A DNA stretch of 64,000 nt, taken from Marsupella aquatica (Eukaryota > Plantae > Marchantiophyta). The DNA lies in assembly GCA_973895155.1 (NCBI GenBank), contig OZ316896.1, positions 19,332,754 through 19,396,753 of the forward strand, read 5' to 3'. A model generated the notes under the pieces. The model saw only the letters and a list, made by a program, of their open reading frames with translations. It did no database searches and was not told the origin of the DNA. Made by a program: the position numbers and the translations under genes. Of the stretch, positions 32,165-58,690 are shown in pieces (the stretch's first letter is position 1; each line of letters starts with the position of its first letter).

Positions 32165-32683
32165 CATGAGGGACCAAGAACAAAAACACCATCTCCAAAC
32201 CCAAGGAGCCTCCTCAATATGGAGGTTTGTTTGGAGTGCATGTGATAACACACTTATAGGAATTTGAGTATGGTGTTAACTCCCATTTTCATTAATAAAT
32301 TTACTTTTTTCCTGGGTACTCAACTCTTGTATAACAGGTAGGGGTCTAAATTTTTAGATGGACCAAAAAATTGGCTATAAGAAATATTAAAATGAAAAAA
32401 ACCTGGGATTTCCACTTTTTAGTTTTAGTTTTTTTATTGTAAACTTTGTTCCATGATCTTAGGTTGCAGTTGTAACTCTAGAGTATGATATAATGGTAGA
32501 CACCATTTTTTAAACTAGCTACTTGCTTTCTATTGTTTTTATTTATTTTAAATTTTAATTAATTTTTTAAAAATCTTATTCCAAGGAGAACCAGAGAAAG
32601 AACAAAAACCTGCATGGCAGGAGAAGGCAAGAAAGAACAAGAGCAATTAAAGTGGATGAGAATTTCTCTGTGTTAAAATATAA

Positions 32684-34200: not shown

Positions 34201-35039
34201 TTAATGATGGTGTCCACTTTTTGGTTTTTGGAGTCATATAAGAATTTTGATTTTCTTTCTTTTTCACATAAAATTAACAAATATTTCTAAAGTTGTCAAA
34301 CTTTTTTACTAATTTATAAATAAAAAAAATCCTATAATGCTGGCTAGCTAGTATGGTTGTAGACCCCTATATTAAAAAAACTATATAATTTGGTTTTCAT
34401 CTAGTTCTTCAACATCAAAACATCTTCATGTTTTTTTTTAAAGTTACATTTTTGTATTCGTTTAGTTAGAGCCACAAAAATTTAGTAAACTAAAATGAAC
34501 CACACATGGTCAATTGCATATTAGGCCATTATAAGAAATTAAAAACTTGCCTTATAAAAAGAGGAGCTGTCAACCCAATTTTTTTTAATTCCTTGTAAAA
34601 GTTTTATATCCAAATGACCATGGAAAGTTTAAGTTTCAAGTTGTACTCTCAACTCATGGTAATATGTATAGAGAGACCTAACTGTAAAAACATGCCAAAC
34701 TTGTTTTGATGCAAAAAAATCATGTGAAACTTTTTGTTAATACAGGATAACCAGCCAAACTAGGTTACATTTTGGGTTCAATTTTAAGAAAAAAAAATTA
34801 TTTTTTTAATGAAATTTATACCTGAATTTCAAGGATTGTTTTAATCTCATGTGGAAAAAGAGGAAACCAAGAATATTAAAAAGTTAAAACCAGTGTTTTA
34901 TTACAACATAGTACTCATTTGGAGCTATCAGGATTTCAATCAACAGAGGGATCGGAGTTAGTCAGAACACCCTATCATGTCACATCACTATATTCATTAA
35001 AACTGTACTTTTAAAAGTCCATAAGATGAACCCTAAAGT

Positions 35040-35150
35040 TATTTTTTTCAGGCCAAATTTCTATTAAAGGATTCCCAAAAGCTAATTTTTTCCAGCCCAA
35101 ATATACACTTTTGAACGCCCAAATTTATTTTTTTTCACTCAAATGTTTAA
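35040..35150 (+). repeat. Left subterminal CCAAAT repeats of the CACTA-ended element
   Basis: GGCCAAATTT, CCCAAAA, GCCCAAAT, GCCCAAATTT, CTCAAAT at ~21-22-bp spacing. A matching array lies at 58505-58690. Confidence 0.6.
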
Positions 35151-35446
35151 TAATAACTTAAATCATACATTTTAATTAATTTAAAAATTAGAGTAAATTT
35201 AATTTAGTCCAAAAATCAGAGGCCAATACCACTCAGACCATCTATAAATTAAAAAATATAGATGGTCATAAATCAAGGGTCAAAATGAGATTGACCCACT
35301 ATATAATTATTAAATTGTCCAGTCTAGTGAGAGAGCCTCACACTAAGCATATCCTAATTATTTACTTTATCCTACATGTTCAAAACATATCCTTTGACAT
35401 AATATGAATGTACAATTCAGGGTAGGCACTAGAGCAACCCTATCTC

Positions 35447-35656
35447 TTAATGATCAAGACAAAACTCATTTGAACAAGAAAGTCTGCTTCCTGATTTATC
35501 ATAGCGGATGTCACGGTTGCAAGTATCTCTCGCATGGTGGTTCTTAAACTTATTGGTGAGATCCCTAGTTCTGAGAACTTTCCAAATAAAATGCCTTCTA
35601 TTTTGTGTATGAGGACCAGAATAGTTGTCTCCAAGTATTACGTTTGCAGTTTCTTC
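35447..35656 (-). pseudogene. Displaced 3' end (69 codons plus stop) of the cargo gene's phosphatase exon
   Basis: The open frame EETANVILGDNYSGPHTQNRRHFIWKVLRTRD...CSNEFCLDH* joins in frame to ...ETWTTDEI (46797) once the insert and one GATCTCAT copy are removed. Confidence 0.8.
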
Positions 35657-36762
35657 GATCTCATCCCTGGGCCCTCACTCCTTGTATATTATACAATCAT
35701 ACCTGTGAGCCTCCCCTACACACGTACCCCTTCTTATTAATTTTTCTCCTATAGAGATTATCCTTGTTTTTTTTATAAAAAACCAAACATTTACTCTTAT
35801 TAAAATATCTTCAGTGTATTACAAAAGTGAGTTTTGAGCAATAATAATTATTCTTCATATATTACAATTTGTATTGAGCGATAATGCTTAACGCTGCCGG
35901 GTATGCTGCAATCTTTATATATGTAATCGAGTATGTAACTGGAGAGTTTTTTTGAAGACCAAGTTACCACTGGTCATGTATGTATATAACCGCTCTATAA
36001 AGGAGATGAAAATGGTAAGTCTTTATAAATCTAAAGACTGATATTGAATCAGCTATTGAATCAGCTAACCCCGCAGCTAACCTAAGACAATACAAACCTA
36101 AGACTCCTGCCCACTATCATGCCTTCCAATGCTGGTCTGCTTCATAAGTGAATAGTCACTTATGTGTACAGGCCATTCTGCTTGCCAAAAAATATGATTG
36201 TAAAAATGGGAAGGGACAATTGCAGGCAAATCATATGATTTTCGAACAGAGATCACACTCCATAGCCCCTCCACACTTGCCTCTACTTCAGGAATCACAA
36301 CATCTATGATTCCTAAACCACAACCTCCAGAACTCTCCTTAGCTATCTCCTTGTTGCTCCACTCTTCTTTGCTGTAATCAGGGCTGCCTTTCCCCTGTGC
36401 CTTCCTTGACTTTGGAACTCTGGAATAAACCACAACAGCTGCTGCAGTTGTCAGACCTCCAGTACCGGGTCTGCTTCTCCTCCTGCTCAGTCTAGAGCGT
36501 TTCTTCATCACTGTTGTCCCCACCTTAGTCATCTCGAAGTCTCCAATACACCTGATCCACAAATGGACCAACACCATGAATGAGTATTATATTGAATACA
36601 ACCAGATCTACAAGGTTTACAGATAACATATCAGAATACGCTTAGGATGTTTTCAAATCTTAACTTGCTACCTTCGCTCCTCTGGAGAATGTGTTACCCC
36701 GGTGTGTAACTGATGAATGATAAACATTAGGCATGGAGTGTACCTGCCCCAAATACAGGTCA

Positions 36763-39700
36763 TCATTCTATGTTGTTCTTTACAAAATTGTCGAGGGCAG
36801 TCACATCATCTGGAGGCAACTTAAAAATAGTTGGATAGAGAGGATCCACTGTAAAACTCACAGTTGATATGACACAGTCCAAGTCAATGGTCTATGGATC
36901 ACACATATTATAAGCAAATTTGTTCCTACTAGACCCAACCGGTGTAAACCAATTGAACACTACTTGACATGCAGCTTCGGAACCAGGTCTATCAAGTAGA
37001 TCCAAAGGTTCTCTAGATCTGCAAACACTGTTACCATACTTTCGGTGGATGCTTTGCACCCTGCCAATCCACCAAACATACTTTGGCCCATATGCAGAAC
37101 GTACACACTGCTACCGGATCTCCTCTTGGCTTCTTTGGATTGGTCACATTTTGTTTTGATTTCCTTCCACCTGCTTTCCCTTTGGATGCTTTTGCTACGG
37201 CCTCTGAGTTTCGAGTTGCCCTGACCTCATGTTGTGTTTCATCAAGGAAGAAAACACCACAGTCAGTGCCCACTGTCATGAACATAGTTGGTACACCCTC
37301 TCTATAGTTGGGTTTGTCCACTAAATTATTGAAGTACACACTCTGTTTCACACGAGTCAATCGGTCCTTACTCAAGTGGGGGTTTCCAATCAGCTGGCTG
37401 ACCAATGTACTTTTGTAGATCTGTCGCTCTTGAAAACACACAGTTGGCTTCACTTGCTTAATTGGTGCACCATACAACAAGTCTGAATGCATGATATTCA
37501 TTGTTGCATACAATTCGGAGGCAGCTTCCTCTACATGAGCGTCTACGTAACGGACAGACATCCCAGGGAAGGAACTCTCAGTCTCAGTCTCAGCGCCAGC
37601 TACAATCCCCAGGGTGGTAACAATAGGTGAAGCTTCCAAAATCATTGTATCAATCTCAGTGACAGTTTGAGGTTGGGCTTCACCATTCAAAGCAGGTCGC
37701 ACATCTCGAATGTCCAAAGTATCTCGTACATCTACAAGTGTATCCACATTGATGTCACGTACACCATCCACCAGACTTCACCCCTTTTGACTCAACTTTC
37801 CACGGTGAGTTCCACCATAGCTTATCCTTGCAAGATGTTGAAGGATTCATTTCCAGCTCAGTTGCAGCACATTGTGCCAAACTTAATCCCTCCTGCAATG
37901 CAACCACGATTGCTGCATTTGTCTCTATCCCTGTATAATCTGTCTGATCTGGACAGACATGAACTGCCTCTGAATCTAATTGAAGATCCATCCAAATGTT
38001 CGAATGCTTTTTGTGGCTCTTTCCAGCACCCATCAATCCCTCTGATACATCCATTGCAGCCAATCTGTTAAGATTAGTGGCACACTCCACTAATTCTGAC
38101 AAGTCATAGCTTCGCTCACGACCGTTCATGCCCCCTACTTTTGAGAAGAATTGCTCACACGCATCTGAGCCAGTCAACTCTAGAGGCACTGGAAGATGCT
38201 TGAAGTGGTCTCGGAATTGGATTATCAACAGAACTATAAAATAGACTGACATTTGAACATCAAGAAAGGTTTGCATAGGGATACAGTTCCGCATGAAAGT
38301 AATTGGTTGTGTATTCCCCCCTACAGTATGGTTCCCATGGAAGCACCATAGGCGCCACAGTCTGAAGAAGAAACCCACCTTCCCACAAAGTACAACCCTC
38401 TCCCGTAGAGTGAGCCGAGGGTTCATGAATATATCCAGATAATCTCCACATATACGAACAAACACCTCAGTTCCAAGTGCGAGCTCCACCCTTGCATCCT
38501 TCCGCAGATGCAACATCCTCAGCGTAGAACCCGCCTTACGACTACAAATCCTTTGTGCACTAGCCCAATTTTGCCTATCATTTCGTGTTACATCATCATG
38601 GTTCAGCCCATGAAGGTCATGGTCATATAAACCTAACAGGAGTCTCAGATGACTCAGGTTGGCCACTTGAGTCCCCAGTTTCAATATCTGAGCTGAAGAA
38701 TCCAATGGGTTCACTAACTTCTTCCCATTGTGGATATAGTCTTGGTCATGTAGCCCAACAGCGTGGGTCAATGGCCCATCACCTGTCATAGAGTGGCTCA
38801 ATTTCCAGCCTTCCCACCCAAGGCTAAATCTTGGCCCTGCCTTCTGACAGCCAGTATAGTCCTCCAACATTAACTTCCTCCTGCGTGCATCACCGTCACT
38901 TGCATGGCCGAGTAAAGGCCCCACACTCTCCAGACAATGAGTGTTCCACAATGACTCCAGGATATCCCACTGCTCTCTAACCCAAGGAGCTTTAAATCTA
39001 TTACATGTACCTGTAGCTAGTATAAGCAACCGTGGGAATCCCTCTGCAAGGGGATTGACTACTATACAACGAGCCATCTGCCCTACCACATTGTTGTCAA
39101 AAGCATCAACGATGATGTGGAAGCCAAGTTCTCCTTCGCCCACTTCTATCTCCCACCCAACAAGGCATACATGCTCTGTTTGGGTGCCGCAAAACCCAAT
39201 CATGGTGTCATGTTTTGGCAGCCACCTGCAAGAAACCAAAACTGAGTTCTTGGTTTCCAGATGGAGCCTACATAATAGTTGAAACAGAGATAAAGGTGAA
39301 ACTAGGATCCAACACCATGACATGACTAACATCATGCGTGAGGGCCTGAAGTACAACATCATGCATGAGGGCCTGAAGAAAGTACCTTACTGTTTTTTTG
39401 ACAGTGGTCTCATCTTCTGCCAAATAACAGGGAACTGGCCCTTTGATGTTGAGTCTCTCTTTCAGTTTGGAGTACACTTGAGAGACAAACATAAATTGTT
39501 CAGCATGGATTCCTGCTCGGAATACTGCCATCCCTCTTCTGTCCCGTTGAAGGGTGTTTATGCTTGGCCCTATCCCATTACTTGCAAGGCAGTCAACAAC
39601 ACGTCGACCACCATGCAAGAAGAGTGTTTGGCAGAGAAGCTTTGTTCCAGCCTTGAACCTATATCCCTCCTTTGTCGTATTCAAGTTTGAAGCTATATCA

Positions 39701-41825
39701 GATAACATATCCCACAATGCACCTCTCCCACCAAATGCACCCTTCCTGTGCGCAAGGACTATGGACTGACAAAACTTAAGGATAGATTCCTTATTGGGGC
39801 CTTGATAGTCAAGATAAACTTCCTTTATACTAGGGATCCGAGACTTCAGCATCAACAGTTTGTGACTTAGATATTTCTGCAACTTCCTCTCTCTCAAAAT
39901 TTGGTTTCTGTATACTTTAGCTTGGTTTTGGACCTCAGGAATTGTGAGGCAACCTAGCCGCCTGCCCTTGCCAGTCCCTCTCTCTCCTCTTTTCTCATAG
40001 GCCTTGACCTCTCTTGCTACCCGAAGTCTGAAGTCCTTCATGTTCTTAATGGAATAACACTTGGAACACGTCAAATCATCAAACCCGCCCCCCAACTGTG
40101 ACATTCGACTACATTCTTTATGCCTGAAAAGGCCCTTGATCTCACAAGCTTCTTCACTATACATACAGAACACCTCTGCCATTACTAGGGGCTCTGCATA
40201 CCACGCACCACCCACTTTCACCTGGTCGTGTAGGTGACTTTTGATAGGCCTAAGTTCTGACCCTACTTCTATCTCATCCCGCCACAGACCCCAACACAAC
40301 AATGACAAATTATCGAAAGTACCTCTATCATCATCTCGTGCTGACATCCTTGACGAGCTGCTTGATGCACCTGCAGTCGAGGTGCGAGTCAAGAACCCCT
40401 GAATTTTTCTCTGTTTCTTATCCCTCCCGTCCACAGTACGGGGTCTGCCAGGGCGCCCTGACAAAACTGGCTCATTTCTTGTAGGCCTCTGACTTTTGGC
40501 CACATAATCAAGATGGATCAAGCCAGTACAATGGCTTGTCAGATTAGCCTCCAAGTTTCGTTGTTTGGGTACCAAAGTCAAATGGTGAAGACAAAAATTG
40601 CAGAACAGTTTCAAAGTCTGGAACTCCACTGGTTCCTTATGGACATCCCCCTCGACTATAAACGTCTCGCGACCAACTGTCTGCAACTTGTTGACCTTTG
40701 CTACAATCTTCAAATGCTCGTCAAGTATGGCTCTATCAGTCAAAGTATTTGACTGCGCCCTCCTTGCAATCTCCACATGCCCAACTTTCTCACTCCTGTT
40801 CCTAGCCACCCGAGCTGCATGCTTTGATGATCGCAAATGCGAATTTTTGAAGTTGGTAAATGCATTATTGATGGATGATTTATCCATCAATGTACCTTTT
40901 GCTAGCCCTTCCACCCGCTTGTCACACTCACAACACTCGATATGCCCCCAGGGCATGTTGTCTTTGTCCCAAGTTCTCACTTTCCACTTGTGGTCAGCAC
41001 ATTTAATGGATTCCATGTGAGTCTTCAACTTATCCGCAGATGCTTCCCATACTGCCTTTAAAGTATTGCTCATAAGAGTGGACATGAATGTGACTTGTTG
41101 TTCAGGCTCTGGCAAGGGGCAACCAGAGTGTGGATCAGCTTCCACTGGAGGCTCCTCATTCATGGGAAAATCGGCATCATCACTCTCTGGCAATGAAAGG
41201 CCATTCTCGGGGGTTTCACTTCCACAAAAATGGGATATCACGTGCGACGAAGTATAGGGTCATTTTATTGGTTCAAAAAGAAGACTTAAGAATTTTCTGA
41301 GAAGAACAATAGGGTCTTTTAAATCCAATTTTGAGACTTATAAGAACATTAGGGTCCTTATAACCAAAATTTTGGAATATTCCAAGAATATTCCAACTTT
41401 ATAGGGGTTGAAAAAATAAATTTTTTTCTTACATTTTAGGGGGTCCAAGGCCTAAAAACGTCGCAGGTGATGGGGAGGCATCCGTATAGTGAGACCCCCG
41501 AGAGGCCATTGGAAGCATTGCTACTCCCGAGGGCTTGCCCTGCGCCTCCAGGGTCTACGTGCACCAATGGGGTTGGAGGCTCCAAGGCATTTTTGGGAAT
41601 GATAACAAGCTTTCCCCCACAATCCTCCAAAAGATTGCAGATCTCCCATTTCTCCGGCATCCGAGTGGCGAGATTGACATCAATAAAGTGGAAGTCAAAA
41701 TCGAGTAGTGCCTCCAACTTCAGTCGGGCATCAGCATACGATTCCCCTGCTTTGTAACTATATGACGATATAGGTTTCCTTTCCCCACCTTCTTTGTCTA
41801 CTTGAAACAAAGTGGCAGGCGGCAT
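36763..41825 (-). pseudogene. P-element/THAP9-like DDE transposase with N-terminal Zn fingers and AT-hook; disrupted
   Basis: Motifs LAEDET...VRW.PKHD..IGFCG (joined by GT-AG intron 39385-39226), HASDGDARRR, DQDYIHNGKKLVNPL, DRQNWASA, GSDACEQFFS. Two CxxC...HxxxxxH fingers and GRPGRPR. Lesions: MITE at 41206-41502, frameshifts at ~37775 and ~37080, in-frame stop at ~36893. Confidence 0.75.
41206..41502. mobile_element. MITE family A, copy 5 (297 bp; 8-bp TSD AGGCCATT), inside the P-like transposase
   Basis: Ends CTCGGGGGTTTCACT / AGTGAGACCCCCGAG. TSD at 41198-41205 and 41503-41510. Removal fuses ...SSNASNGL to SLPESDDADF... in frame. Confidence 0.92.
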
Positions 41826-41859
41826 TCTCTCACCCTTTACTGACAACCTATCCACCTCT

Positions 41860-44800
41860 CATGGGCCTGCGCACAGTCCACATGACAAAGGGAGCATCAA
41901 CATAGGGATTGCTCAAAATAGGATAGGTTCATTTCATTCTAACCACATATTCACCCAAAATGCAACTTTCTTGGGTGGCATGGCGCAACACCACACAATG
42001 TGGACATCATGTGCACCAATTCTTCTACTAGAGACAGGTTACAAAGATGTTAGGCAGATTGATGATTGTTGGCCAATGCGGGAAACAAGCAACCTGGCCT
42101 ATTAGAATGGGCCAACATCCAAAGGAAGTCTATGGAGGGCCTGCGTGCGACAGGTATTAATCTGATAGTTTAAACAAACCGCCCCAATTCTCATTTCAAC
42201 TCGATCAGTGGCAAGTGGATCCCTGAGCTCATTGATAACATCTTGGATGTCATCAAGAAGGAAGTGGTACTCATTCAAGCCACACGGAAAAATGAATATG
42301 GCTTTCGCCCGAGCAACAATGAGACTGTAGAATGTGATCCAGCCTTTTGACCTCTGCCGAAAGGCCTCCAAAGCCATGCCAATTGCATTCTGTTGACTAC
42401 ATATAAGACAGGCTGGATCTTTACCGTTGCTTGTTGAAGGCAATGGAATTGTGTGAGAGAGATAGAAAGGAGGACAGAAATTCATGATATCAAAGCAAAG
42501 TAGGCTACCAAGATTGGTTATAAGGCAATATTAAGCAACCCACACGTGGAGACCGCATCCACTGGACCAATCCCACGAGAGCCTTGCCCCATCCCGACCA
42601 TTTCTCGTTAGGATTGGCTGGTTACAGATCCATTGCTGCTTTCTCCGACATGTGTCGGGTGGGAAGGGCGTACCCTTTGCATGCAAGGACTCCAGATTCA
42701 GCGTAAGCACAAGAGGGACAGGGATCTGCACATGGCCATTTCAGCTTGCCCAAGTTTAGCTTGTCCCAATTCAGCTTGTCCCATATGTGCTTGGTCCATG
42801 TACAGTCGGGGCCAGGCCCACACTCCAATCCTTCTCCTCCACAGTTGTGAGGGCCACAACAGACTATACATGACTTAAGGGGCTGACAGCAATGACAAGT
42901 GACAACCATGGACACAATAATGACAGGCTCTAATCACACACTCCCCCAGGCAACCTGCTTCGAAATTACAAGGAGCGCTGGACTGCCAGCGGCTAAATCC
43001 AGCAGTCGCCAATGGGGGCATGACTTCCCCATGGTCTCCTTGAACTCGATGGGCCCTGCAAATTAAACGAGTCCTACATGTACAAAAAAATGACAAAACT
43101 GAAATGACATCTTACCTGAGCAAGATACAAAGCCCTGTGCATTAGCAACTTAAAACATATGAACTATATAAGAAGCGGTAAATAATGGAGCACAATTGAA
43201 AGAACCACAAAGTCCAGAATATGTACATACCTTGGACTAGAGTTTTTGGACCTCTGATAGAATGGTCCGCCAAGTAATGCAGCTTGAGGGGGCCGGGCCG
43301 GTAGCAGCTGCGTTGGGCACAAGTTGGTATGTTGCATGATAATGTTCAAACGTTAGCTCAGACATTTCAAAAAACCAATGATGCAGGGGTCATAACACAC
43401 AACAACATTTTGTTTTGAACACGATGGCAAAAAGGAAATGACTACCTTCCTAGTTGGGGGATAGCAGTTGCCTTGTACCACACCTCCGTCAATACCCCTC
43501 CTTCAATACCAAACTCTCGTCCACTGGACATCACCGCTACCACAAGATCCATTTCCAAAAAGAGCGTTAGTTGACAGTCTTTGAAAGGCCACCAGCATAT
43601 GTATGTGTTCGTGCCATGCCTTTGGGTCATATGGCAGAATAGTCATCATCGAATCCCTTAAAAGAAACTCAGACTGCCAGGGCCGAGGCTGACATACAAA
43701 TACATAATATACTGATGATATATAGGTGATACAAAAATTAGTGTTGGCATCCGCTCATACACTCTTACAAAATGACCATTCAAGAGGTCATGTGAACTGC
43801 TAACTTGGCTATCATCCCTGCACAAACTAATCTCCTGCGTAGACTAACAATCTGTGCAATTTAACCTCCCTATGCATGTACCTACTCGCCATCTTGAAGC
43901 TCTACAAGGCCTAACACAAAAGGGTCCGTGTTCTAGAGCTGACACACTTTCCAGGCCCTCTTTTTTGCAAAAACCTCATTGTACTTAACGTCCGCGTCTG
44001 GATCTACATCACATGCTGGACACCGAGCATCCAAAGCATGTACACATCCTGCACCAACAGTGATCTGAACACCATTCATCGTCTGAGTGAACATAATGGA
44101 CTGTGGATCGACATACTTTTCCCACATGGTTTGGCGGGTCATACGGGATGGACGATTAGAACCAAACATAATGCCAATAGGCCAAGTCCCTCTCAACATG
44201 CCTAATGCCTTTAGCTTACGTCGCAACCTCACTGCTTTCTCATAGAGAAGGCCTACAGATTGGCTTTGGGTGGTTACCATGGTGTCTTTTGCACCGTTAC
44301 CTCCGTAGAAGGCAAAGACAGAGGGTCTGAAAATCAAGCCTACCAAAGCTGGTCCACACGACAAATCCTCCTGCAACAACATTGTCCGGTGTGTCACTCA
44401 CTGTACTATAAAAATGGACAAACTGAGCATCACAAATTGCAAACAGAGCGAATGTTTCAGGGATTTGGCTAACTTACTTGGCCTCTAGAAATCGACAAAA
44501 CTTCCCGCTCCCACAACTTCGTGTGGAGCTTTGGATTTGTTACATCAAAGCTCCTTGAGATCCACCTCTCCCCAACCTTGATGATTCACCTAAAGTTTGC
44601 TGCAGAATTTTGGGCAATGGTAGCCATCCCAGATTAAAATTTGTTTATCAAACTCAACTGCACAAACTGCAAATGAATACCTTGCGGCCTTAACCCTTGA
44701 CGCAATACAAGTGACCAAGGAAGTTCATTCCTGATTGGTGCGTACCTCAGTCTCCTTTGTCCACTGATCCTCTGGTCGTGACCCGGGTCCTCAAAGCTGA

Positions 44801-45450
44801 ATCTTCCAACCTCCACTCTGCTCAACTAAGCCCGATGGATGATCACTGCAGCTGCTTACAAATGTCTGCGACCAAACCAGGAAAAGCGTTACTTACAGAC
44901 CAACACCCTAGCCAGTGAAGGAGCTACAAATGGAGTCCAAAAAGTGGTGGAAGATTAAGTATGAGAGCAGACCTAAGGCAATAGCAGAAGGCAAGTCAGA
45001 GCAGAATAAAATAAGACATAGGAAGCCGGGGAGGAATCAGAAGAGCGATGGCAAGCGCTTCAACCTAAGTGCAGAAATTAAGAGCTTAAGAAGTCCTAGA
45101 GACGGTTGCTAAAGGAACTCAAGAGCAATTGCAACATCCGAGGCAATGCCATTTGGCGATATATAGTGAATGCAATATCGTCAACCAAGAAATGCAGTTC
45201 ACTTGAGGGACTGTCACTACATTCAGGACTACATCGCGTGGGTTTTGTTCAGTCTAATGCAGGGAGAGGGTTACCTTGTTGCACCAAACCGGAAGGTGAT
45301 CGCTCCTTAGCCTTCCAGGGGGTATCCTTCGATGATATCTGAAAAGGCCCACAGGCATCAGCTAAAAGCACGTAAACTCTACATCCATCCTTCCATTGAA
45401 AAACTCTCTCAACATTGAAAACCAGATGGCTTACCGTGCTCAATTGATGT
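41860..45450 (-). pseudogene. Decayed multi-exon accessory gene(s) of the P-like element, function unknown
   Basis: Coding-like Cys/Trp-rich fragments (42102-42485, 42875-43096, 43933-44397, 45249-45443). Minus-strand GTAAG donors near 43115, 44477, 44895 and 45434. Internally similar peptides HFLLDDI/HFLVDDI and LGECVIR/LGEYVVR. Confidence 0.35.
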
Positions 45451-46796
45451 GTCCACTCCCAGAAGAGTCAACACGCAACACTGAAGCTTTCACTATCTCC
45501 TTCGATCACTGGGTTTCTCAAAAATGATCTGTAAGCAAAACATCTCCACAATGAAGCACTCAAGCTGGCAGCGTTTGCAAATCCAATGAAATGTCACTCA
45601 TGTCGATCGCATCAAGATCTTAAGGATAGTCACAATGACTTAGAACAATCCATTGAAATCCAGCCAAATGCATTGGCAGTCAAAGGCACGTAAATCCTAC
45701 AAATCACAATGCAGTGGCGTGCAAATCCGCAAGTTGGCACAGTTACAGCCAAATCCAGGAAACATTGAGGCAACACATAGAACATTGAAGACATAACCGG
45801 GGAGATAACAATGCATGCCAAAAATGTGGAAGGTTCACAGAGCATTTGAGTGGGTGAGATTGAGACGACCTTGACAATCGCAATGTCGGGGAAGACCTTC
45901 CAAACTAAGGACCTTCAAAGCCAGCACTCAGCGATGCTGGGCAAGAGCAAGAACAGGCAAACGAGGGCCAACAATGTAGGATGCGGATCGACAATGGTGG
46001 ACAAGGCCAAAGCAGCAATGGCGGACGAGGAGCAGCAATGGCAGACAAGGAGCAGCGATGGCAGAGGATCAATGATGGTGGACGAGCAGCGATGGCAGTC
46101 GAGCAACGATGGCGGCCGAGCAGCGATGGTGGACGAGCCAGGAGCAAGCAGAAGGCATCAGGGAGCGGGAGCACGAGTGGGAGCGCGAGGCGAGGTGAGA
46201 CCGAGCGCAAAGGAAGAATGAGGAGCAGGGGTACGAGGGGGGGCTGACCCCGGGCGGTGACGGTCTCACGACTAAACCCTAAACCTTAGGGTTCATAACG
46301 TAGGCGAGGCCATGGATCGCCGATTCAATGGCTTCGATTCGCTCTCCCTCTAATCCAACGGTTTGAGTCATCCCCGATGTGTTTTCTTAAATTCCCCGCC
46401 AAAACCCCCACCACTCCACACACCTGGTCCATCCCCATTGCCCCGGGATCGCCCCCAATCCTCCCTTCAAAACTTTTCTAGCTTAGCATAGCCAGTATTA
46501 ACATTTTAATTTATGAAGGAGATATGGATACTGTAAGGATAATACACGTGTACCAATTATAATTTGACACGTGTACCAATAATATGATGCCGCGTGTCGC
46601 TACCTATTGATTTACCCTTCCACAAGTAAGCAGGATGACATTTCAAGGGGTCTTACGAAATTACAAAGTGGTTTCAGTATATATGCGGTGGTTGCGGAAT
46701 TGTAAGCAAATTATAAAAATTACCGCCGAAGGGATAAAAATGACCCTTGAACGGTTCTCACGTCCTCCCCGTATTAGAAAGGAGGGGGGCCCAGGG

Positions 46797-49700
46797 GATC
46801 TCATCCGTGGTCCACGTCTCCAGTGGTGGGTAATGCTGCACCTCGTTCTTTCCGTCCCAAGGAATCTCTTCAGGAGTCACATCCAAGATGGTTCCAAACT
46901 CCTTATGGATACAACGACAATCTCCCCACTTCTGTTCCAAAAGAGCATAGATGGCAGCATGATCCTCCTTGCTTGTTAATAAATTGAAAACAGACCACTT
47001 TGGATTGTTGACAGTGATATAATGTTGAACGCAGTAAGCCTTTCTCAATTTGCAAAGATACGGCCATAATATCTCGGGCAAAAATGTGTCATTTGAAGCT
47101 GTGTGAGTAAATGGATTTGGAAACAATCCATTCACGTCATAATTCAAAAATGCCTTCAATGGAGAATCATCAATAAGAACTATATTAGAAGCATCATATT
47201 TTTCTGGAAAACGGTCCCAAATGGTTTGCAAATTCTTCAGAAGTAAATTGGCCTTCCCATCTGTTATATCTGGCCTTTGGATGCAACTATCAAAGGTATC
47301 TTCTTGAGTAAAGACAAACTTGAACTTCTGTCGCTCCTCCTCAGTGAAAATCAACTCCATTAAGTCCATTGTTTTTGGCCTCCTTGCACAGGTCCAAATT
47401 GCGACGTCAAAAACCATGAAAGCTGCATATAGAAATTTGTGGAGGTATGGGCGCTCCACATACATGAAATTAAACCCTCCACGTCTCCCCCAGTGCACAC
47501 CACGTAAACTTGTCTGATTTTGCCATGGTCCTGAGCTTCTGGTCTTAATGCAATCCCAACAAATCTTGTTAAGGTCAAGAACCAAGAGCTTTCGCCCGAT
47601 CGGAGAGTGTAGTATTGGAGTGAATTCTGGAAACATTAAAATAAGCCCTTAGTCAATGCGACTCAAAGTTTAAACAATTACTACGGAGGAAAACTCTCAA
47701 AATTTGAAATCAAACAAACTTTGTTATAGCATTTGAAGTAGAGAAGAACGACCCTGGGGCGACCCTCCTAGAAAAACATTAATTACATTCACTTGCCATT
47801 TTTTAGATCCAAAGTATACCTGGGTCAAACCCTTCCTCCACAGCAACGCTTTCCGAGGGAATGCCAACAAAATCCTTTGAGGAAGGAGATTCTACGACGG
47901 AACTTTGATCTGTAAAAAAGTATATTATTACAAAGATAAAGCTTAGATTGTCATTAAAATACCAAGAACCAAAGAAAGGGCTAATACTTTCCAATGCTAA
48001 AATGCCCAAATTCATCTATTGTTTGATCACCTAGAACACTCTGTATCTCGGAATTGATACCACTGGGAAGTTGCTCTTCAAAGGATGGGGGTGCAAAAAC
48101 TGGGCTCAGTCTCAAGTTCAGTTTTTTGTAATCTGATTTTGCCATTATCTTTGGAGCATCGTCTAGTGATTATATCATTCCAACCTTTGGTCCATTTCTC
48201 CATATAAAATGAGTTGCAGGACGGACTGTTTTCATATATCTAGTCCTGCCGATCTTGGATCCAAAATTTTGTGAAAATGATAATACTACGGGGCTTCCTG
48301 TAGAAGCACTTGTAAAAACCAATTTAGTCTCTGATGAGCAATATAGAGGAGACAGGGGAGGATTTGAAGCACCCGCCTTCTCTTCTTCATTTGCAGCGGT
48401 CTCAGGTACTTGACGATCATCCTCCTTTGCAAGCGCAATGTCTGACATTTCTCCCAATTCTACTGCGTCAATATTGCCTAGACCATCTGTGGTTGCCTTC
48501 CAATGTGCGTCCGATGTGGACGATGTAAGATCTGGGTCCGATTGGTGCATCCAATTCTCTACACCGGCAAAGGGATTTCTTGGTGGGTCGCCCTCAGGTC
48601 GACCCACAACATCGGCCAACCCCACACCAAAGTAGGGAATACCTACCACTTGTGTTCCACGTTCATCCAAATTTCGGGTGACCCTGTCGTCTGTGTCGTG
48701 ACCCAATTCTCCTTCCTCAATATCATCTTCACCCTGGTCTACGCCTTCTTTGGCACCAACATGCTCGAAAACCCCATCTCGGGCTCTACCAAATTTGGAA
48801 CCGCCCATCCGGTCACTCATTATGGAAGGAACTTTCTCGCAGAGAACCCTTCCATATGCCTGAGTGAAATCATATTCATCCTCAGTGTCTGAATACGCAA
48901 AGCATTCTCTGAAACACAACAATGACACCTTCATAACCTGTCCTCCCGAGAAAAAGTCAAGTATAGTCTCCCCTTCAGCCGAAAAAAATTCGATAATACT
49001 CTGCAGCATACATTTTGGCTTAGCGTGAATATTCACAAAGCCACCTCTACTTCCCCACCATCTCAAACATGGGAGCCTTTCGTAAGAAATCTCCAATGTG
49101 GAATGCCAAAGTTGACTCAGTCTCTGTCTCCTTACTTGTCTTACTCTTATTCTTATCTCGCTTCTCCGTCTTGTCTTCCACTTGGAAATCAGGGTCGATC
49201 GCCGAATTGTAAGAAAATTGGCAATTAAATCCAGGCCTGAACACTTGCTTCCAATCAAATTTCTCCTCAGTGGTGATTCCTGCAAAGATCCACAATGTAT
49301 TGCAGTAATGCAATAATTTCAGCATCGGTCCAAACATGTTGTCGGAGCCTACTGAAGTCAACAATGGCAAGAGGACACAAAGGCGAAGGCTCTTGTAGCA
49401 TTTCCGGCACGGTCGTCTTCATCAAATTCTCACTAAAAAATGTCAAGAAAGGCTCCGTGCAAGAACGACCAATCCCACCAAATTCTTTACAATACAACCC
49501 ATCTAGTCTGACCATCAGACTTTGTGGGAAACTCTCCTTGACCACATTCTTCTTCAATGAATTGTTGAGGTAAACCTCACCCGCTGCTCTCCTCAATTTT
49601 GTCATCTCAAGCTCAGATTTCAAGGAAGGCAACAATATCACCAGAGACTCCCAAGATGTGCCAACAGGAAACTTCTCACGATACTTTTCCATGAAATAGC

Positions 49701-52700
49701 CAATAATGACTGTTCTCAATTTGGACATTATCTTGATTGTAAGGGCCAAGTCTCCCATTGCGACAAGCTCTGATTTGTTGGTGATATCCTTCTTCAGCAA
49801 GACACGCTCCTCTTCAACGTCCTTCAAGATCTCAATTATTTGTTTGCTACTAATCTCTCCTTCAAAGCATCGAAAGGTACCGGGAGTGATCAATTTTGGG
49901 GGTCTTGGCCCTCCATACCCACCAGCCCCGTCTTGGAGCTTCCCACTCAACCATTTTGCACACACGTTTCGCCATAATTCAAAGAGCTCATCTTCGGCAA
50001 AAAGTAACCAATAAATGCTCTTTAGGCTTGACTTCCCCATTGTAACCTTTGCCAGGGCAAACCAATCCTGCATATCCAATGGACTTGACATTAGTTTCAG
50101 GGTACAATGCATATGTTAGAAAATTTATACCTATATTTGAAACAGGCTAAGCCGCCTCGCCCCAAGGGCATGGCGAACCTCTACATCTAACCGCAATTGA
50201 CTGAAACGGAACTAGGGAATTATTCTTAGAGAGACTAGTCTAGGTTGCCTCGCCTTGAGGGCGAGGCAAACATTTGCTTTAATCTTCTAACCAAGGAAAA
50301 CAAGAAAAGGCAACCTCGCCCTTGGGGTGAGGCAAACCTCTACCATTGACAATCTTTAAACAAAGCGGATCAAGAATAGTTTGCGTTGCTCCAACATGTA
50401 CCTGATAGTTTTTCCTGTCTGTATTTTGATTGGTCCCAATCCCTGGACGCGGCGGTTTCCCGCACTCCTCAAACTGCCTTCGTGCATGAACAATAGTCTC
50501 TAAAAAACAAGACTTAAATTGCATAGTATCATTGACAGCATTCGATAAACTTGAATGCTCAACCAAAATTGTCTTCGGAGTGAGGTCAGATAGGATCCTT
50601 GCTTCCTATACTTTAGTTTGTTGGCAAGATCTGTCAGCTTGGCGTCAGTCTCGGCCCACCCTTGGATCCATTGGGCAGCTCTTGCAGAATGCTGGCCACT
50701 GATGGCAAGGAATTGGATCTCATGCTTCTTCACACCAATCAAAAACTCTTTCCTATCCTGAGGTGTGTTGTCATAATGAAGCAACTGTTTAGTGCTCTCG
50801 CGATACGGAATCAAATCAGCAACTTGTGGTTCCTGTCCAGGGTTTTTCATCATAGACTTTGATATCTCCATTGCATGCGAAAGATTGAACATTCGATATA
50901 CAAAAACGGCCGATGGCGGATTAATACTTTTTACAGGAATATCAAAAACTTCGCGGATGCCAAAAGTATAATACTACTCAATATTACGCAAAACCTCTTG
51001 GCCTTTGAGCACATCATCTTCTGTGGGTCCTTCTGTCGGACACATATCATCCTCTGGATGCAAGACAAAGTTTGAAGTCGACCCTGACATTGGTTTTGAT
51101 TTCGCAACCTTTGCCTTCTTTGTCTACTTTTTTTGGGGGCCCTCATCATCTTCATTTTTTTTAGCCATCTTCTTACGGCGTGAACTCCCAGATTGTTTCT
51201 CTTGTTGAACAACCGGCTCTTGAAGCTTTCATTTCTTCTCTGTCTTTGATTGCACACTTCTTTCCACTGTCTTCTTTCTCTCCTTTGCCTTATGCTTTGC
51301 TTCTTTTTTCTTCATCTCTGAAATCCACGTCCGGCACGCGGCCTCTTGAAACTCTGGACAAAAAATGAAACTCTTGTCGATTGCTTGCTCGTATGAAAAA
51401 TGTGCCTTCTCAATCATCCTTTGAACTATCCAAGTAGACGGAGGGTCCACACTGTCCGCATTGTCATGCATGTGCTTCTTTACGTAGAGAAATCCAAACA
51501 CTAGGTCAACTCCACTTATTTGAGAACACGTCTTCTCAAACATCTGATCAATTGTTACTCCATCTAGGAAGAATCCCATATCAGCTACGCTTATCTCCAA
51601 TCGAGCCATCCACTCAACATTCAGTAAAGTCGAGTAGAGTTTTATTGGCACCAGAAGTCTCATCCACTGAGATTTCTCATTGGACTCAACAATAATCGTT
51701 GCATTGCGGTTGTTGTCCGTGTTCACAAGGACGACTGGACCTAGAGTAACAATTGTCTTATGGTCATTCAATTGACTCGTGAGGTCCTTAAAACAAATCA
51801 AGAGACTGCCTTCCGCCGACTCCCCAACTTCTAGTGCCCATCTAAATCCTGGAGTATCTTGGTCAGGGAAAACAAAGTCCTTGATATCCTCGTCCATAAT
51901 ATTTAACTCCGGCTTCTCAAGATTTTTTCCTGGTAAGAAACATTGAAAACAAAATGGTCAACATCATATTTTTAACATTGACATGTGGAAAACTTTCAAG
52001 GTGCCTCGCCCTTGGGGCGAGGCGACAAATAGAAGATTGCAAAATCTTCTTTGCTCCTAGTGCAATTAGCCCTGCCACCTCATCCAAGCAATCAAACATT
52101 ATTTAGGAATGCAGACGACATCGCCTCACCCCAAGGGTGAGGCAACTTCTAGGAAAGCAAACAACATTTAGGAATGCAGACAACATCGCCTCGCCCCAAG
52201 GGTGAGGCAACTTCTGGGAAAGCAGACAACATTTAGGAATGCAGAGGACATCGCCTCGCCCCAAGGGCGAGGCAACTTCTGGGAAAGCAGACAACATTTA
52301 GGAATGTAGAGGACATCGCCTCGCCCCAAGGGCGAGGCAACTTCTGGGAATGCAGACAACATTTAGGAATGCAGATAACATTGCCTCGCCCTAAGGGCGA
52401 GGCAACTTCTGGGAATGCAGAGTACATTTTAGGAATGCAGATGACATCGCCTCGCCCCAAGAGCGAGGCAAAAAATAGAATATAGCTAAAGATCCTTTAT
52501 TAATGTAAGATACAAGGTCCAATACACCTTCGGAGCAACAAGAAATCTAGAATGAAGTAGACGTCGCCTCAACCTTGGGGCGAGGCGACTGCAAAGGAAT
52601 ATAGAAATTTTCCTAATAAGAAGTTTGAAATCCAAATTAAAGTAAAGTTTCCTCGCCCTTAGGGCGAGGCAAGAAGTTGAAGCAGGTGGTGCCTTACGTG

Positions 52701-52866
52701 GAAAAGTGAACTGGGCTTTCTTTGACGCCTCCAACGCATTGTTAACCAATTTTTGGACATCCGGGTCTTCAGGGTCATATTCATACAGAGAGTTATAATT
52801 GAAGTTCAATGACTCTTGAGAACTGGCGGAGGTGGTGGAAGCTTCAGAACTGGAGGAAGTAGACAT
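46797..52866 (-). pseudogene. Cargo gene: ParB/Srx-like + beta-class amino-DNA-methyltransferase-like + FCP1/NIF HAD phosphatase-like fusion (~1620 aa reconstructed)
   Basis: Phase-compatible GT-AG exons 52866-52698, 51929-50402, 50067-48031, 47909-47820, 47626-46797 (+35656-35447). ParB-like VFDIPVKSINPP...YRMFN...EISKSM...FLAISGQHSARA. MTase-like VNIHAKP..LQSIIEFFSAEGETILDFFSGG. Phosphatase-like KLLVLDLN, ERPYLHKFL, VAIWT, LKNL..IW, VLIDDSPLK. Several premature stops and frameshifts. Confidence 0.72.
52101..52470. repeat. 65-bp tandem array (~5.7 units) with palindromic core GCCTCGCCC-CAA-GGGCGAGGC
   Basis: ATTTAGGAAT at 52101, 52166, 52231, 52296, 52361 and ~52427. Solo copies of the core at ~50153, 50246, 50313, 52002, 52565, 52651, 53001 and 53025. 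Confidence 0.95.
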
Positions 52867-53966
52867 TGTAAGGGGCGAGTGAGATTTAAGATGACATGTG
52901 GCAGCAATGGAGATTGCCACAAGCTGCAAGAGGGCACTAACAGGCAAACAATGATCGAGGGAGCGACCCAAAAGGGAAGGGAGCAAGGCGGAAATAAAAG
53001 CCTTAGAGCGAGGCGGAAAAAAATCCCAAGAGCGAGGCAAGAGGCAGGCAAGGAAATGAGGCCTCAAGCGCAAGGCCTGCCTTCCTATACCCCCTGCGAG
53101 CAAGGAGTCCGAGGAGGCAAGGATCCGAGAGGGTACGGAGGCATCAATGCGCGCCAATGATGGAGACCCTCCTCGCTGCATGTGATCGTGAGTCACCGAT
53201 GGTGTGACCACTCACGACCACTCGCGACTCACCTACCAATTTTAAACTTCCGAGCTGTCAGCGGTGTGTGCTCGCAACTCACCTATCACTCGTGAGTGAT
53301 TGGCTGACACCCTATCCGATGTCTACTTGTGTGCTGGGTGCGTGCCTCATCCACCCGTGCCCGATCTTTGGTGTCCACTCGTGTGCTGGGTAATGTGTGG
53401 GCTTTTTGCCTCTCAAACTGAGTATAGACTTCCCACAATCCATTTTTTTGGTTCATTGTCATTTAGACAGTGATTGGTACGATCACTGACTCTCCTCTGT
53501 CCGAGTGCCTTGTTTAGGTCCGTATGGTTGAATGCAAGGTTTAGTAAGGGCACTGGTGAGCACTGTGGTGCTAAGAGTTACAATGCTGGCATCCAAGGTA
53601 CCCATTTAGCTTGTACAAGGGTGGGCAGAGATATATTGCGGAGCAGGTTAGTGATTTTATTTATTTATCTTAGAAGTACTAGCTCAACTACATCTAATTC
53701 AATACCTTTAAGCCAAACCTAGATTAAGATTTACACATTAGGTTCTAGATCATATATTTTACTCATTTCTAGACCTTTATCCACAGTCTAGCATGTGTAG
53801 AACTTACTATACCCCTTTATGTGATTACTAACATAGTTTCTAGAAGTGGGTCGGAATTATTTCATGCCGACCTGACTATGTCATCTTAACTAGCATTTTA
53901 AACTGGTATATAAAAGCATAAGCAAGATAGTTTCACAAATAGTTTTGACATAATTTCAACTTAATA

Positions 53967-54295
53967 GTTGGAGTAGGGTCGAAATAATTCCGACCCAACT
54001 TGTCAATGTTTAGTCAATTAAATCATTTTAAGACATATTGTTGGAGGAGGGTCGAAATAATTCCGATCCGACTTGTAAATGTTTAGTCAATTCAATCATT
54101 TTAAGACATATTGTTGGAGGAGGGTCGAAATAATTCCAACCCAACTTGTAAATGTTTAGTCAATTCAATCATTTCAAGACATATTGTTGGAGGAGGGTCG
54201 AAATAATTCCGACCCGACTTGTAAATGTTTAGTCAATTCAATCATTTCAAGACATAATGTTGGAGGAGGGTCGAAATAATTCCGACCCAACTTGA
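53967..54295. repeat. 73-bp tandem array (~4.5 units) with palindromic core GGGTCG-AAATAATTC-CGACCC
   Basis: GTCGAAATAA at 53978, 54051, 54124, 54197 and 54270. An inverted partial copy lies at ~53848. Confidence 0.95.
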
Positions 54296-54420
54296 ATGTA
54301 TTTAGGGTTTAGAGTGATTTTACAATATTTTTTGGAGGAGAGTCCAGATTTTGAAACATGATTGTAACATGGGGAACTTAACAATTTCTAACTTTATTTG
54401 AATACAGATAGTCCGCTATC

Positions 54421-57400: not shown

Positions 57401-58139
57401 TTGGAAGAATCTTGTGCAAGCACTGTCCGAGGAACTTACAATAGAAGGGGAGGGGGAAAGACATTTGCCATTGACAATTGATTTTTGGCCAAAGACTAAC
57501 CATGGCACAGGTTACAAGATGATTTTGGGGACATCTCAACCGTCAAGTGAACCTTCTCAAAATCCAGAGATGATGGACCTTCAAAATGAGTACATGGAAG
57601 AGATGGAAGATCAAGCTGCACCCTTTGTTGGTGCACGACAAGAGCGAGAACCTGCACGTTGGATTCCTCTACAAGATATTCAAGAAGGTCACTTTGTATT
57701 TTTACGTCCAGAGGATGAATGGGAACAGGAAAATGGCAAAGGGCGTTTCTGGTTGGTTCGAGCTTTGGGTGGTGTGGATCCAAACCATGAGGTTCCCTCA
57801 ACAGATTTGCAACATATTGAAGGGTCTTCTTCAACGTCTGTTGAGAGCATTCCTCTTAGGAATGCTCCTATGTTCCAAGTACAATGGTGGAGGCCTAAAC
57901 ATGGTAAGCATGATGCAAAGGATGATGTTCGATATGAACGTTGCTTTCAAACCACTAAGACTTGGGAGCTGGATCCTGGGTTTGACAATGTTACTCAAAG
58001 TTGGCAGTTTGCAAATTCTGCAATGTATGGGTTTAAGTCAGGTGCTAAAGAACAAAATATTATGGATAGAGGTTTGACAATTACTAAGAATGTTTTGAAA
58101 ACTCTCAAAATTTACATGGAAGGTATAATTGATGAGTAG
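54421..58139 (+). pseudogene. Transposase of the CACTA-ended element (DUF7869/Sola1-like DDD core with three N-terminal tandem domains), ~1240 aa, disrupted
   Basis: IIHDKMDQ, LTLQMDNSGKDNKN and FLMVGHTHEDVDALFS acidic-triad motifs; CCKLKC, VCK and KCTFC Cys clusters. Three N-terminal repeats of GDEV...VA.G.V...LG...I...LP.P...T..EA....VIWD. Frameshifts at ~55215, ~56238 and ~56865; stop at 56015-56017. Confidence 0.82.
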
Positions 58140-58504
58140 ATTGATAGAACTCGTAGGTTACAAGTCTCCACTCAAATGACTTGTGATTAAGAGGGTCGAG
58201 TTGATTTCCATGCGTTTGTCTAAAGTGAGAGAACAAGACAATCAAATTAATACTCTATGATCTCTCAAAGTTATTGAATGGACTTTCTTATAATTATTAT
58301 TTTATTTGTCTTAGTATATTTTAATTCTAGAAAATGATGCCATTTCATTCCTTCTAGTAGGTTGGATATCATCCTAGTTAACTTTGTCTAGACAGTATAG
58401 TCATTCCATTGTATTGGTGCTTAGTTAGATATCTTACTCAAGCTAAATGTTTTGAATATAGATGCTATCCAAGCTTATATGTTATTACTAGATTCTATCT
58501 ATTT

Positions 58505-58690
58505 TCCAACCAAATGAACACTTTTATCACCCAAATGTTTTTTAATATCATCCAATTTAATATTTTATTTTCCCAAAATTTCATTTTTTTATCCCCAAAT
58601 TTACATTTAATGATGCTTGAATTTTCATTTTTCATCTTCCAAATTTACAATTTTCATGCCTAAAACTATGTTTTTAAATCGCCAAATTTC
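58505..58690 (+). repeat. Right subterminal CCAAAT repeats of the CACTA-ended element
   Basis: ACCAAAT, CCCAAAT, TCCAATT, CCCAAAA, CCCCAAAT, TCCAAAT and GCCAAAT at ~21-22-bp spacing. Confidence 0.6.

Follow-up and report, generated by a model that had tools for sequence, protein, structure and literature searches.

Very probably, the 64-kb window (the whole stretch of DNA analyzed) contains a broken 11.1-kb cut-and-paste transposon with an 8-bp TSD, whose family is predicted to have the P fold and is likely an old land-plant lineage, lacking a THAP domain, within the P superfamily. The coordinates of the element and its parts are collected in Table 1.

Table 1. Features of the element and its insertion site (window coordinates).
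Feature	Position	Strand	Remarks
CACTA-ended host transposon	34986..58729		32-nt TIR match, 2-bp AT TSD
Left TSD copy, 8 bp, GATCTCAT	35657..35664		sequence and empty-site joint
Whole P-superfamily element	35665..46796		11,132 bp; ends and empty-site joint
Left TIR	35665..35683	+	CCCTGGGCCC perfect over 10 bp; 17/19 with one gap (by eye)
Transposase exon 2	36763..39225	-	stop at 36763-36765
Premature stop, codon 1487	36892..36894	-	sense codon in contigs of all 4 runs
4-bp insertion, frameshift	37099..37102		GT-AC-GT context; missing in contigs of all 4 runs
Second 4-bp insertion, frameshift	37757..37760		GT-AC-GT context
Intron, 160 nt, GT-AG	39226..39385	-	inferred from contiguous homologues
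Transposase exon 1, 3' part	39386..41197	-	through first catalytic Asp (D703, 39412-39414)
MITE TSD, 8 bp, AGGCCATT	41198-41205 and 41503-41510
Nested MITE, 297 bp, high-copy	41206..41502		TIR CTCGGGGGTYTCACT
Transposase exon 1, 5' part, from likely start ATG	41503..41825	-	homologue comparison
Long upstream region, minus-strand splice signals	41826..46300	-
Two tandem subterminal ACACGTGT palindromes	46544..46589		23 bp apart
Right TIR	46779..46796	-
Right TSD copy, 8 bp, GATCTCAT	46797..46804

The element ends begin with CCCTGGG, and both strands terminate in ...CAGGG-3', with a 3'-terminal G at each end. P elements start with CA, and the preliminary description was right that these ends do not. 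Its exact 8-bp TSD and GC-rich TIRs also stand, the TSD being backed by an empty-site joint. The terminal pattern is present twice without mismatch in the window, and no more. One pair of an 8-bp TSD and a 10-bp TIR was found in 1 of 20 dinucleotide shuffles, so the end structure alone is only modestly rare. The decisive evidence that the element is real is the empty-site joint. In contigs of two public runs (X1 and X3), the flanks are joined without the element, from 35656 directly to 46797, and this joint skips 11,140 bases, that is, the element plus one TSD. The TSD length is known from this one insertion. The palindromes inside the right end are candidate transposase binding sites.

The element sits among plant genes, inside a CACTA host transposon that carries a DUF7869 transposase and a NIF-phosphatase gene. 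The latter is split by the element, and in silico removal of the element made its 353-aa frame whole again. A TauE gene in the window has its best named match in Calypogeia fissa (73%). This match agrees with the land-plant host assumed earlier and suggests a leafy liverwort.

The transposase gene was modeled at 1,529 codons with one intron, in line with the intron-containing transposase of about 1,500 aa first described. The 5' part of exon 1 shares 42% identity with the beginning of Calypogeia P0277. The 3' part encodes, in order, two C2H2/matrin-like zinc-finger modules, an HxxC..CxxC module, a long helix, an HTH, and D703. The intron lies between this first catalytic Asp and the remainder of the RNase H fold. 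Exon 2 encodes the rest of the RNase H domain (D822, the D(2)H at 874/877, and E1069), a GTP-binding-type insertion domain, and a helical CTD, followed by an acidic linker and a C-terminal β-barrel domain; these domain calls draw on sequence and on the predicted fold of a homologue. All of the motifs reported before (EDET, SDGD, QDxxHxxKKxxN, DRQN, and CExxF) were found. The D of EDET is at 39412-39414, SDGD is at 38895-38897, and the E of ACEQFF is at 38154-38156; QDYIHNGKKLVN and DRQN are also present.

The preliminary description had given the element about 4 kb of extra exons, which concerns the region upstream of this gene. The splice signals there fit that reading, with 10 strong donor-like motifs on the minus strand versus 2 on the plus strand. 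The coding part of the claim is not supported; the region has no Pfam match of substance and gave a weak signal in a codon-bias test. Its best ORF (43936-44397) encodes 154 aa of no family. Judged by its sequence, the region is likely a multi-intron leader or a small accessory gene.

For the fold, we used a model of a Riccia homologue, P0005, which is 50% identical to the window protein (pLDDT 85). Foldseek matched it to the Drosophila P transposase 6P5A with an E value of 7e-9 and a TM score of 0.73 on the target. In VIA, the Z score was 25.7, with an rmsd of 3.3 Å over 399/442 residues (chain range 144-569). The identity to P transposase is 12-14%. The match covers the HTH, RNase H, and the GTP-binding insertion domain of the predicted model. 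The next best VIA match had a Z score of 8.5, and RAG1 (Z 8.3), the MULE-like ISCth4 (Z 8.2, rmsd 6.3 Å), and the hAT transposase Hermes (Z 7.8, rmsd 7.2 Å) scored lower still. The P-type assignment proposed at the outset is therefore supported, with the insertion domain present in the predicted fold. The window protein's own N-terminal model matched the HTH of 6P5A weakly (Z 5.8, rmsd 2.8 Å, 71 residues). With a cutoff of E ≤ 0.001, Foldseek returned nothing for it. The best rows in VIA were HPF/dsRBD-like (Z up to 7.9), and spliceosomal and TUT4 chains, which we take to be zinc-finger proteins, scored 4.7-5.6; both sets are in the chance range.

These scores also bear on whether the element could belong to hAT, MULE, Zisupton, or Kolobok, which is extremely improbable. 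The D(2)H/CxxH motif could fit those groups as well, and hAT elements usually have TSDs of 8 bp. For MULEs, 8 bp falls inside the 7-12 bp range (PMC10741241). However, hAT and MULE identities are refuted by fold scores far below that of P and by the absence of their Pfam domains from 10 window ORFs and 86 homologues scanned; a MULE is also expected to have long TIRs, whereas the TIR here is 10 bp. Kolobok has a TTAA TSD, and the TSD here is GATCTCAT. Of these four groups, the fold comparison covered hAT and MULE; we know of no solved structure for Kolobok or Zisupton.

Some sequence comparisons point to P as well. The top ESM Atlas match was 0.94, the nearest clusters carry PF21787/21788/21789, and 10/10 best family matches agree. 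Pfam provided weak bridges through PF21787 in Adiantum P0037 (E 2.6e-4) and PF12017 in the relative P0156 (E 6.4e-5), and a weak match of PF21788 to P0277 residues 898-999 (E 0.13). None of 10 window ORFs matched a transposase family in Pfam, and PDB sequence searches with the core ORF and a 117-row profile gave noise, with no direct P transposase match. In alignment A2, D1 of the catalytic triad is conserved in 75 of the 76 rows with a residue there, D2 in 108/110, and E in 96/97. The D and H of D(2)H are present in 113/117 and 116/117 rows (QDYIH in the window protein), and the motif follows strand 253-256 in the P0005 model. A [C/D](2)H motif directly after β5 is a P-superfamily trait (PMC8230255). 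An Asp precedes the catalytic Glu by three residues in 91/100 rows of A2, which is the spacing of D528/E531 in P transposase, where D528 contacts GTP (PMC7776569). The candidate position for D444 is Asp or Glu in 77/114 rows. Of the eight listed GTP contacts (D528, K385, K400, V401, S409, F443, D444, and N447), at most two were thus mapped, D528 by spacing and perhaps D444. The 3'-terminal G of the transferred strand also contacts GTP in P (PMC7776569).

The Drosophila melanogaster P element (6P5A/6PE2) has in common with our element the 8-bp TSD, the 3'-terminal G, an intron-containing gene, the DDE triad, the D(2)H, and the Asp before the catalytic Glu. The HTH, split RNase H, helical insertion domain, and CTD are predicted to follow in the same order. 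In contrast, our element is larger (11.1 versus 2.9 kb, with a protein of 1,529 versus 751 aa), its TIR is shorter (10 bp perfect and about 19 imperfect, versus 31 bp), its ends start with CC rather than CA, and its D1-D2 spacing is 119 rather than 73. It has an additional C-terminal β-barrel, which found no PDB-profile match and no usable ESM Atlas match; by eye, the model may be BAH/Tudor-like. Instead of a THAP domain, it has the two C2H2/matrin-like fingers and the HxxC..CxxC module. The lack of an obvious THAP domain, noted before, was confirmed by sequence tests: there is no C2CH-F signature in the window protein or in 20/20 long homologues, and no Pfam THAP. THAP was also missing from the folds listed for the N-terminal model, which is a weak test alone.

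It is unlikely that the element belongs instead to a separate sister group that has the P fold but lies outside the superfamily and needs its own name. The low identity to P transposase, the missing THAP signature and CA ends, the very short TIR, the twofold length of the protein, and its extra barrel would suit such a group, and the family is large by itself (1,336 clusters formed at 50% identity, with E ≤ 0.001, of which Pfam misses nearly all). However, P is matched in domain order, in the D(2)H signature, in TSD length, and in the fold of the insertion domain; the D(2)H-to-E spacing is 195 versus 192 in P; and there are relatives that reach or come near the P-family models of Pfam. The THAP domain has been described as confined to animals (PMC7776569), and there are reports of P elements in a protist and in fungi (PMC3698922, PMC5751038). 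Those elements (Pucciniales, Allomyces, and Trichomonas) place the P superfamily outside animals and presumably have no THAP. Galileo, 1360/Hoppel, and THAP9, compared here by description, have the catalytic signature string, the insertion domain, and a 7-8 bp TSD in common with our element (PMC3698922), but THAP is present in them. Foldback TIRs of great length mark Galileo. Animal P, Galileo, 1360, and THAP9 elements have 5'-CA termini and TIRs of about 31 bp or longer, whereas ours is short. Our verdict is that land plants very probably harbor a new P-superfamily variant without THAP, represented by this element.

Named plant relatives come from Riccia, Calypogeia, and Adiantum and are annotated as hypothetical proteins. 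The C. fissa homologue (1,529 aa) is 55% identical end to end. The plant members are deeply diverged, at 35-65% identity, and have in common an N-terminal extension specific to plants. Outside plants, the nearest named relatives, about 30% identical, are a protein of Desmophyllum pertusum, a coral, and "GoldUCD" proteins from EukProt. These (P0108 from Desmophyllum, P0279, and P0297) have the same EDET/SDGD/QDxxHxxKK/DRQN/GSDxxE core and, together with the Riccia, Calypogeia, and Adiantum proteins, the [H/S]xxC..CxxC module and the C-terminal barrel. The non-plant forms measure about 1,030 aa, without the plant extension. None of these relatives is labeled P by its source. GingerRoot has a similar distribution in seed-free plants, corals, and other animals but differs in its unrelated integrase-like transposase and 6-bp TSD (PMC6839031).

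An IQ-TREE tree of 48 rows (9/48 with an informative source label, no canonical P rows, and an arbitrary root) placed all named plant rows in one 100/100 clade, with the fern outside, and grouped Riccia, Calypogeia, and the window at 100/99. An 11-row clade adjoining the liverworts is, at a guess, mosses. The plant clade mirrors host relationships, which favors old vertical inheritance; on this sequence comparison, liverworts and ferns have likely passed the family down from early land plants onward. A recent animal-to-plant transfer (the relatives being cnidarian-like), or contamination, is very unlikely. The coral and EukProt proteins are the closest named relatives outside plants, and seed-plant names are absent from the matches listed. 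However, the element is surrounded by plant genes, the plant members are too far apart in sequence and share their own extension, and they form one clade with named rows in the order fern/(Riccia, leafy liverworts). The tree therefore disfavors an origin of the plant lineage by horizontal transfer, which had been raised earlier; an ancient transfer may have preceded the bryophyte-fern split.

This copy carries several lesions (Table 1), none of them listed in the preliminary description. The nested MITE is missing from the element in contigs of all 4 runs. The insertion at 37757..37760 is probably missing elsewhere too, given 8 gap letters spanning both insertion sites in X1, X3, and X5 contigs. 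A role as splice donors was considered for the two GTACGT sites and rejected, because homologues code across both and other copies simply do not have the four bases. The element differs by 0.36-0.43% from contigs of X1 and X3. A 99% identical element was also seen in a differently labeled organism, there without the flanking host transposon. Intact copies of the family likely still exist.

By analogy with Drosophila P transposase, we suggest that the N-terminal zinc-finger modules and HTH bind the element ends in place of THAP. In this scenario, the DDE RNase H domain (D703/D822/E1069) would be responsible both for cutting the ends and for joining them, with a stagger of 8 bp, and GTP would sit against the 3'-terminal G, held there by the helical insertion domain. 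Since the TIR is far shorter than the 31 bp of P, this element may depart from P in the 17-nt staggered cut and in the refolding of the ends, and 17-nt staggered end cleavage is doubtful here. This copy inserted in another transposon and decayed afterwards. A fuller account is tentative, and as a whole we think it may well be wrong: an undescribed THAP-independent P branch, maybe with its own name, was present in the land-plant ancestor, was kept in liverworts, mosses, and ferns and lost from seed plants, is common to corals and other marine eukaryotes, and is still active in leafy liverworts, with zinc-finger end binding and a chromatin-reader-like C-terminal barrel for landing in other transposons, and is at present moving between species.

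In reviews of plants, six or seven TIR superfamilies are given, with P not among them (PMC9033089, PMC10741241), and a Pfam screen for P in 1,007 plant genomes found none active (PMC12973397). The earlier statement that P elements are rarely reported in land plants agrees with these two reviews and one survey. With no Pfam match for the window ORFs and 10-bp TIRs, the family would go unseen by such screens. It accounts for many liverwort and fern proteins annotated as "hypothetical", and an intact copy would be a possible tagging tool for liverworts. The family would be a natural setting in which to ask whether P transposition in general has the GTP cofactor and the 17-nt overhang, or whether these are peculiar to the Drosophila/THAP9 branch. 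If our reading is true, the land-plant mobilome gains one more superfamily, and P-type elements would go back to early land plants.

The P-superfamily-like element is real and well bounded. The 8-bp target site duplication (TSD) GATCTCAT lies on each flank, as the preliminary description had claimed, and the terminal inverted repeats (TIRs) are perfect over 10 bp and match at 17 of 19 positions with one gap. By itself this pattern is only suggestive, because one of 20 shuffled windows also gave a comparable pair. Contigs of two public sequencing runs, X1 and X3, contain the joint 35656->46797, leaving out 11,140 bases, precisely the length of the element with one TSD. These empty sites settle the reality of the insertion and confirm the exact duplication. 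Taking the element out brings back a frame of 353 aa that encodes a NIF phosphatase domain. The flanks belong to a CACTA-ended transposon and are covered several times more deeply than the insert in the public contigs; most probably, the empty sites represent further copies of this surrounding repeat and not the locus itself.

The CACTA-ended host is high copy in runs X1 to X3. It carries a methylase-like ORF among its cargo, and separate study may be worthwhile of a DNA methylase that travels on a liverwort transposon. Palindromic repeats of about 28 bp (GCCTCGCCCCAAGGGCGAGGC-like) cluster in both orientations between its divergent genes (50150-52672), and a decayed LINE fragment adjoins it (32571-34241; endonuclease domain, Pfam E 1e-4). 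The genes near the element (GH116, TauE, glutaredoxin, kinase) are of ordinary plant types. Among the seven matches listed for the TauE exon, the best named one is from the leafy liverwort Calypogeia fissa (73%); Riccia fluitans reaches 42%. The host is probably a leafy liverwort. Low-complexity tandem repeats at 1852-2703 yield a 283-aa hydrophobic pseudo-ORF with no family match.

Features of the P-like element and its host transposon (window coordinates)
Feature	Position	Strand	Details
P-like element	35665-46796		11,132 bp; TSD, TIR, empty-site joint
Transposase gene	41825 to 36763	-	1,529 codons; one 160-nt GT-AG intron
4-bp insertion	37757-37760		window copy
4-bp insertion	37099-37102		window copy
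Nested MITE	41206-41502		297 bp; own 8-bp TSD; GC-rich TIR CTCGGGGGTYTCACT
Related MITE copies	31846-32138, 24356-24500, 33785-33844
CACTA-ended host transposon	34986-58729		2-bp AT TSD; ~12.6 kb without insert
DUF7869 transposase (CACTA)	55085-58139	+	frameshifted
N6/N4 DNA-methylase-like cargo ORF (CACTA)	48170-49318	-	Pfam E 0.003
Cargo ORF with ParB-like motif (CACTA)	50500-50973	-	by eye
NIF phosphatase cargo ORF (CACTA)		-

By predicted fold and signature, the element is P-like, as the preliminary description had read it, and its most suitable place is within the P superfamily, outside the THAP-bearing animal families. None of 10 window ORFs matched a transposase family in Pfam, and PDB sequence searches with the transposase core found nothing. 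Homologues touched PF21788, PF21787 or PF12017 weakly (1 of 25 and 4 of 61, one above the cut-off). The family is nevertheless large: searches gave 90 matches among 6,874 candidates, 1,336 cluster representatives, and 226 profile matches, 120 of them listed. Because an intron splits the window core, we predicted the fold of a contiguous Riccia sorocarpa homologue, P0005, which is 50% identical to that core (117-row alignment; pLDDT 85, pTM 0.80). At E<=0.001, Foldseek matched this model to two PDB entries only, both Drosophila P transposase (E 7e-9, TM 0.73 on target). VIA comparison with that enzyme gave Z 25.7 and an rmsd of 3.3 Å over 399 of 442 residues, an alignment that runs from the HTH through RNase H and the insertion domain into the beginning of the C-terminal helical domain (CTD). 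The next best of 48,161 chains had Z 8.5, with RAG1 at 8.3, ISCth4 at 8.2 and Hermes at 7.8, which argues against a hAT- or MULE-type core. The model also predicts the GTP-binding-type insertion domain. With the window's own ORF, P-transposase clusters ranked first in ESM Atlas (0.94). The catalytic and D(2)H residues on which the P-type reading was originally based are near-invariant in the family alignment. Three positions ahead of the catalytic Glu, an Asp is likewise kept in 91 of 100 rows; the matching D528 of P transposase is a GTP contact (PMC7776569). Distant members P0102, P0123, P0157 and P0202 have add-on domains (Tudor PF21743, SAP, a C1-type finger and a weak UCH match).

The window protein differs from P transposase at both ends. 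Its N-terminal 700 residues comprise a small domain, two CxxC...H...H modules that are C2H2/matrin-like by motif, with fold matches at chance level, and an [H/S]xxC..CxxC module present in 18 of 20 long homologues. A long helix follows, then an HTH weakly matching that of P (Z 5.8). Motif search found no THAP signature in the window protein or in 20 of 20 long homologues, as had been anticipated. Beyond the CTD the protein continues through an acidic linker into a beta-rich domain that is conserved but matched nothing in the databases searched. With short TIRs that begin with CC, the ends indeed lack CA. Like P, both element strands end in G, and the 3'-terminal G is the base contacted by GTP in P (PMC7776569).

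The insertion, its 8-bp duplication and the conservation of the catalytic residues are seen directly, and the transposase is predicted to have a P-type fold including the insertion domain. We suggest that the zinc fingers and HTH would bind the element ends, perhaps at the paired subterminal ACACGTGT sites. Cleavage by the DDE residues and then strand transfer would follow, with GTP as a candidate cofactor, and the C-terminal barrel might have a targeting role.

The gene model bears out an intron-containing transposase of about 1,500 aa, with the intron position inferred from contiguous homologues. The window protein aligns end to end with a 1,529-aa Calypogeia protein (55%). Four lesions damage this copy: the nested MITE, two 4-bp insertions and a stop at codon 1487. 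In contigs of all four runs compared, the MITE and the 37099 insertion are absent and a sense codon occupies the stop position. No listed difference marks the 37757 site, but X1, X3 and X5 contigs spanning both insertion sites have eight gap letters. Against the contig pieces listed, the window shows 30 differences in 8,394 bases (X1), 25 in 5,763 (X3) and 94 in 9,102 (X5), many of them of C-to-T type in the window copy. Because the lesions are mostly missing elsewhere and divergence is low, this copy is a recent insertion now in decay, from a family that looks intact in its assembled consensus. Coverage of the element contigs is about 6 to 8 times deeper than that of adjacent unique pieces (X2, X3), a rough hint of a few copies rather than a count.

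The 4-bp insertions are identical, 658 bp apart, in a GT-AC-GT context; the 8-mer GTGTACGT occurs in the window only at these two sites. They resemble the footprints that hairpin-type excision would leave behind as an element with a 2-bp TSD hopped locally; an assembly artefact is the alternative. The nested MITE belongs to a very high-copy family. Because its ends do not begin as hAT ends usually do, another P-like subfamily may mobilise it.

The upstream 4.5 kb, common to other copies, had been described as about 4 kb of extra exons. Donor-like motifs agree with this (10 on the gene's strand versus 2 on the other), but a codon test found no convincing coding signal there. Our best guess is a long spliced leader; a small accessory gene is possible. 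This region contains tandem units of 15 bp (42650-42960) and 17 bp (45969-46155), the former block covered more deeply than the rest and variable in length between copies.

The lineage seems undescribed in land plants. The literature searched contained no report of P elements there; an unpublished bryophyte entry in Repbase is conceivable. Green-algal P elements are present in Repbase. In published surveys, plant TIR superfamilies number six (Table 1 of PMC9033089) or seven (PMC10741241), a Pfam screen of 1,007 plant genomes for 17 superfamilies including P found seven, P not among them (PMC12973397), a liverwort RepeatMasker table gives 0 for Mirage/P/Transib (PMC12130436), and P elements occur in Pucciniales and Allomyces (PMC5751038). 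Related background comes from PMC3698922, PMC8230255, PMC7466625 and PMC6839031.

In run X5, whose organism label (C) names a different organism, the element is ~99% identical, and 35102-35635 and 46850-49500 of the host transposon are almost without cover at 85% likeness. Either a close relative carrying the element or a recent transfer between species could explain this pattern. For deeper history, FastTree was given the window and the 142 proteins covering at least 330 profile positions, out of 315 with a core match; a coral protein below this filter was left out of the trees. IQ-TREE was run on 48 chosen rows, nine with an informative source label, without canonical P rows and with an arbitrary root. 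No seed-plant name appears among the matches listed, but a listing of this kind cannot establish absence. In the IQ-TREE result, a single clade of 27 rows (100/100, stem 0.47) takes in every named plant row. Adiantum sits outside a subset of 23 rows (100/99), within which 11 other rows form the sister of the group made up of Riccia, Calypogeia and the window (100/99). Because this topology follows the host tree where names exist, it favours inheritance of the plant lineage from early land plants.
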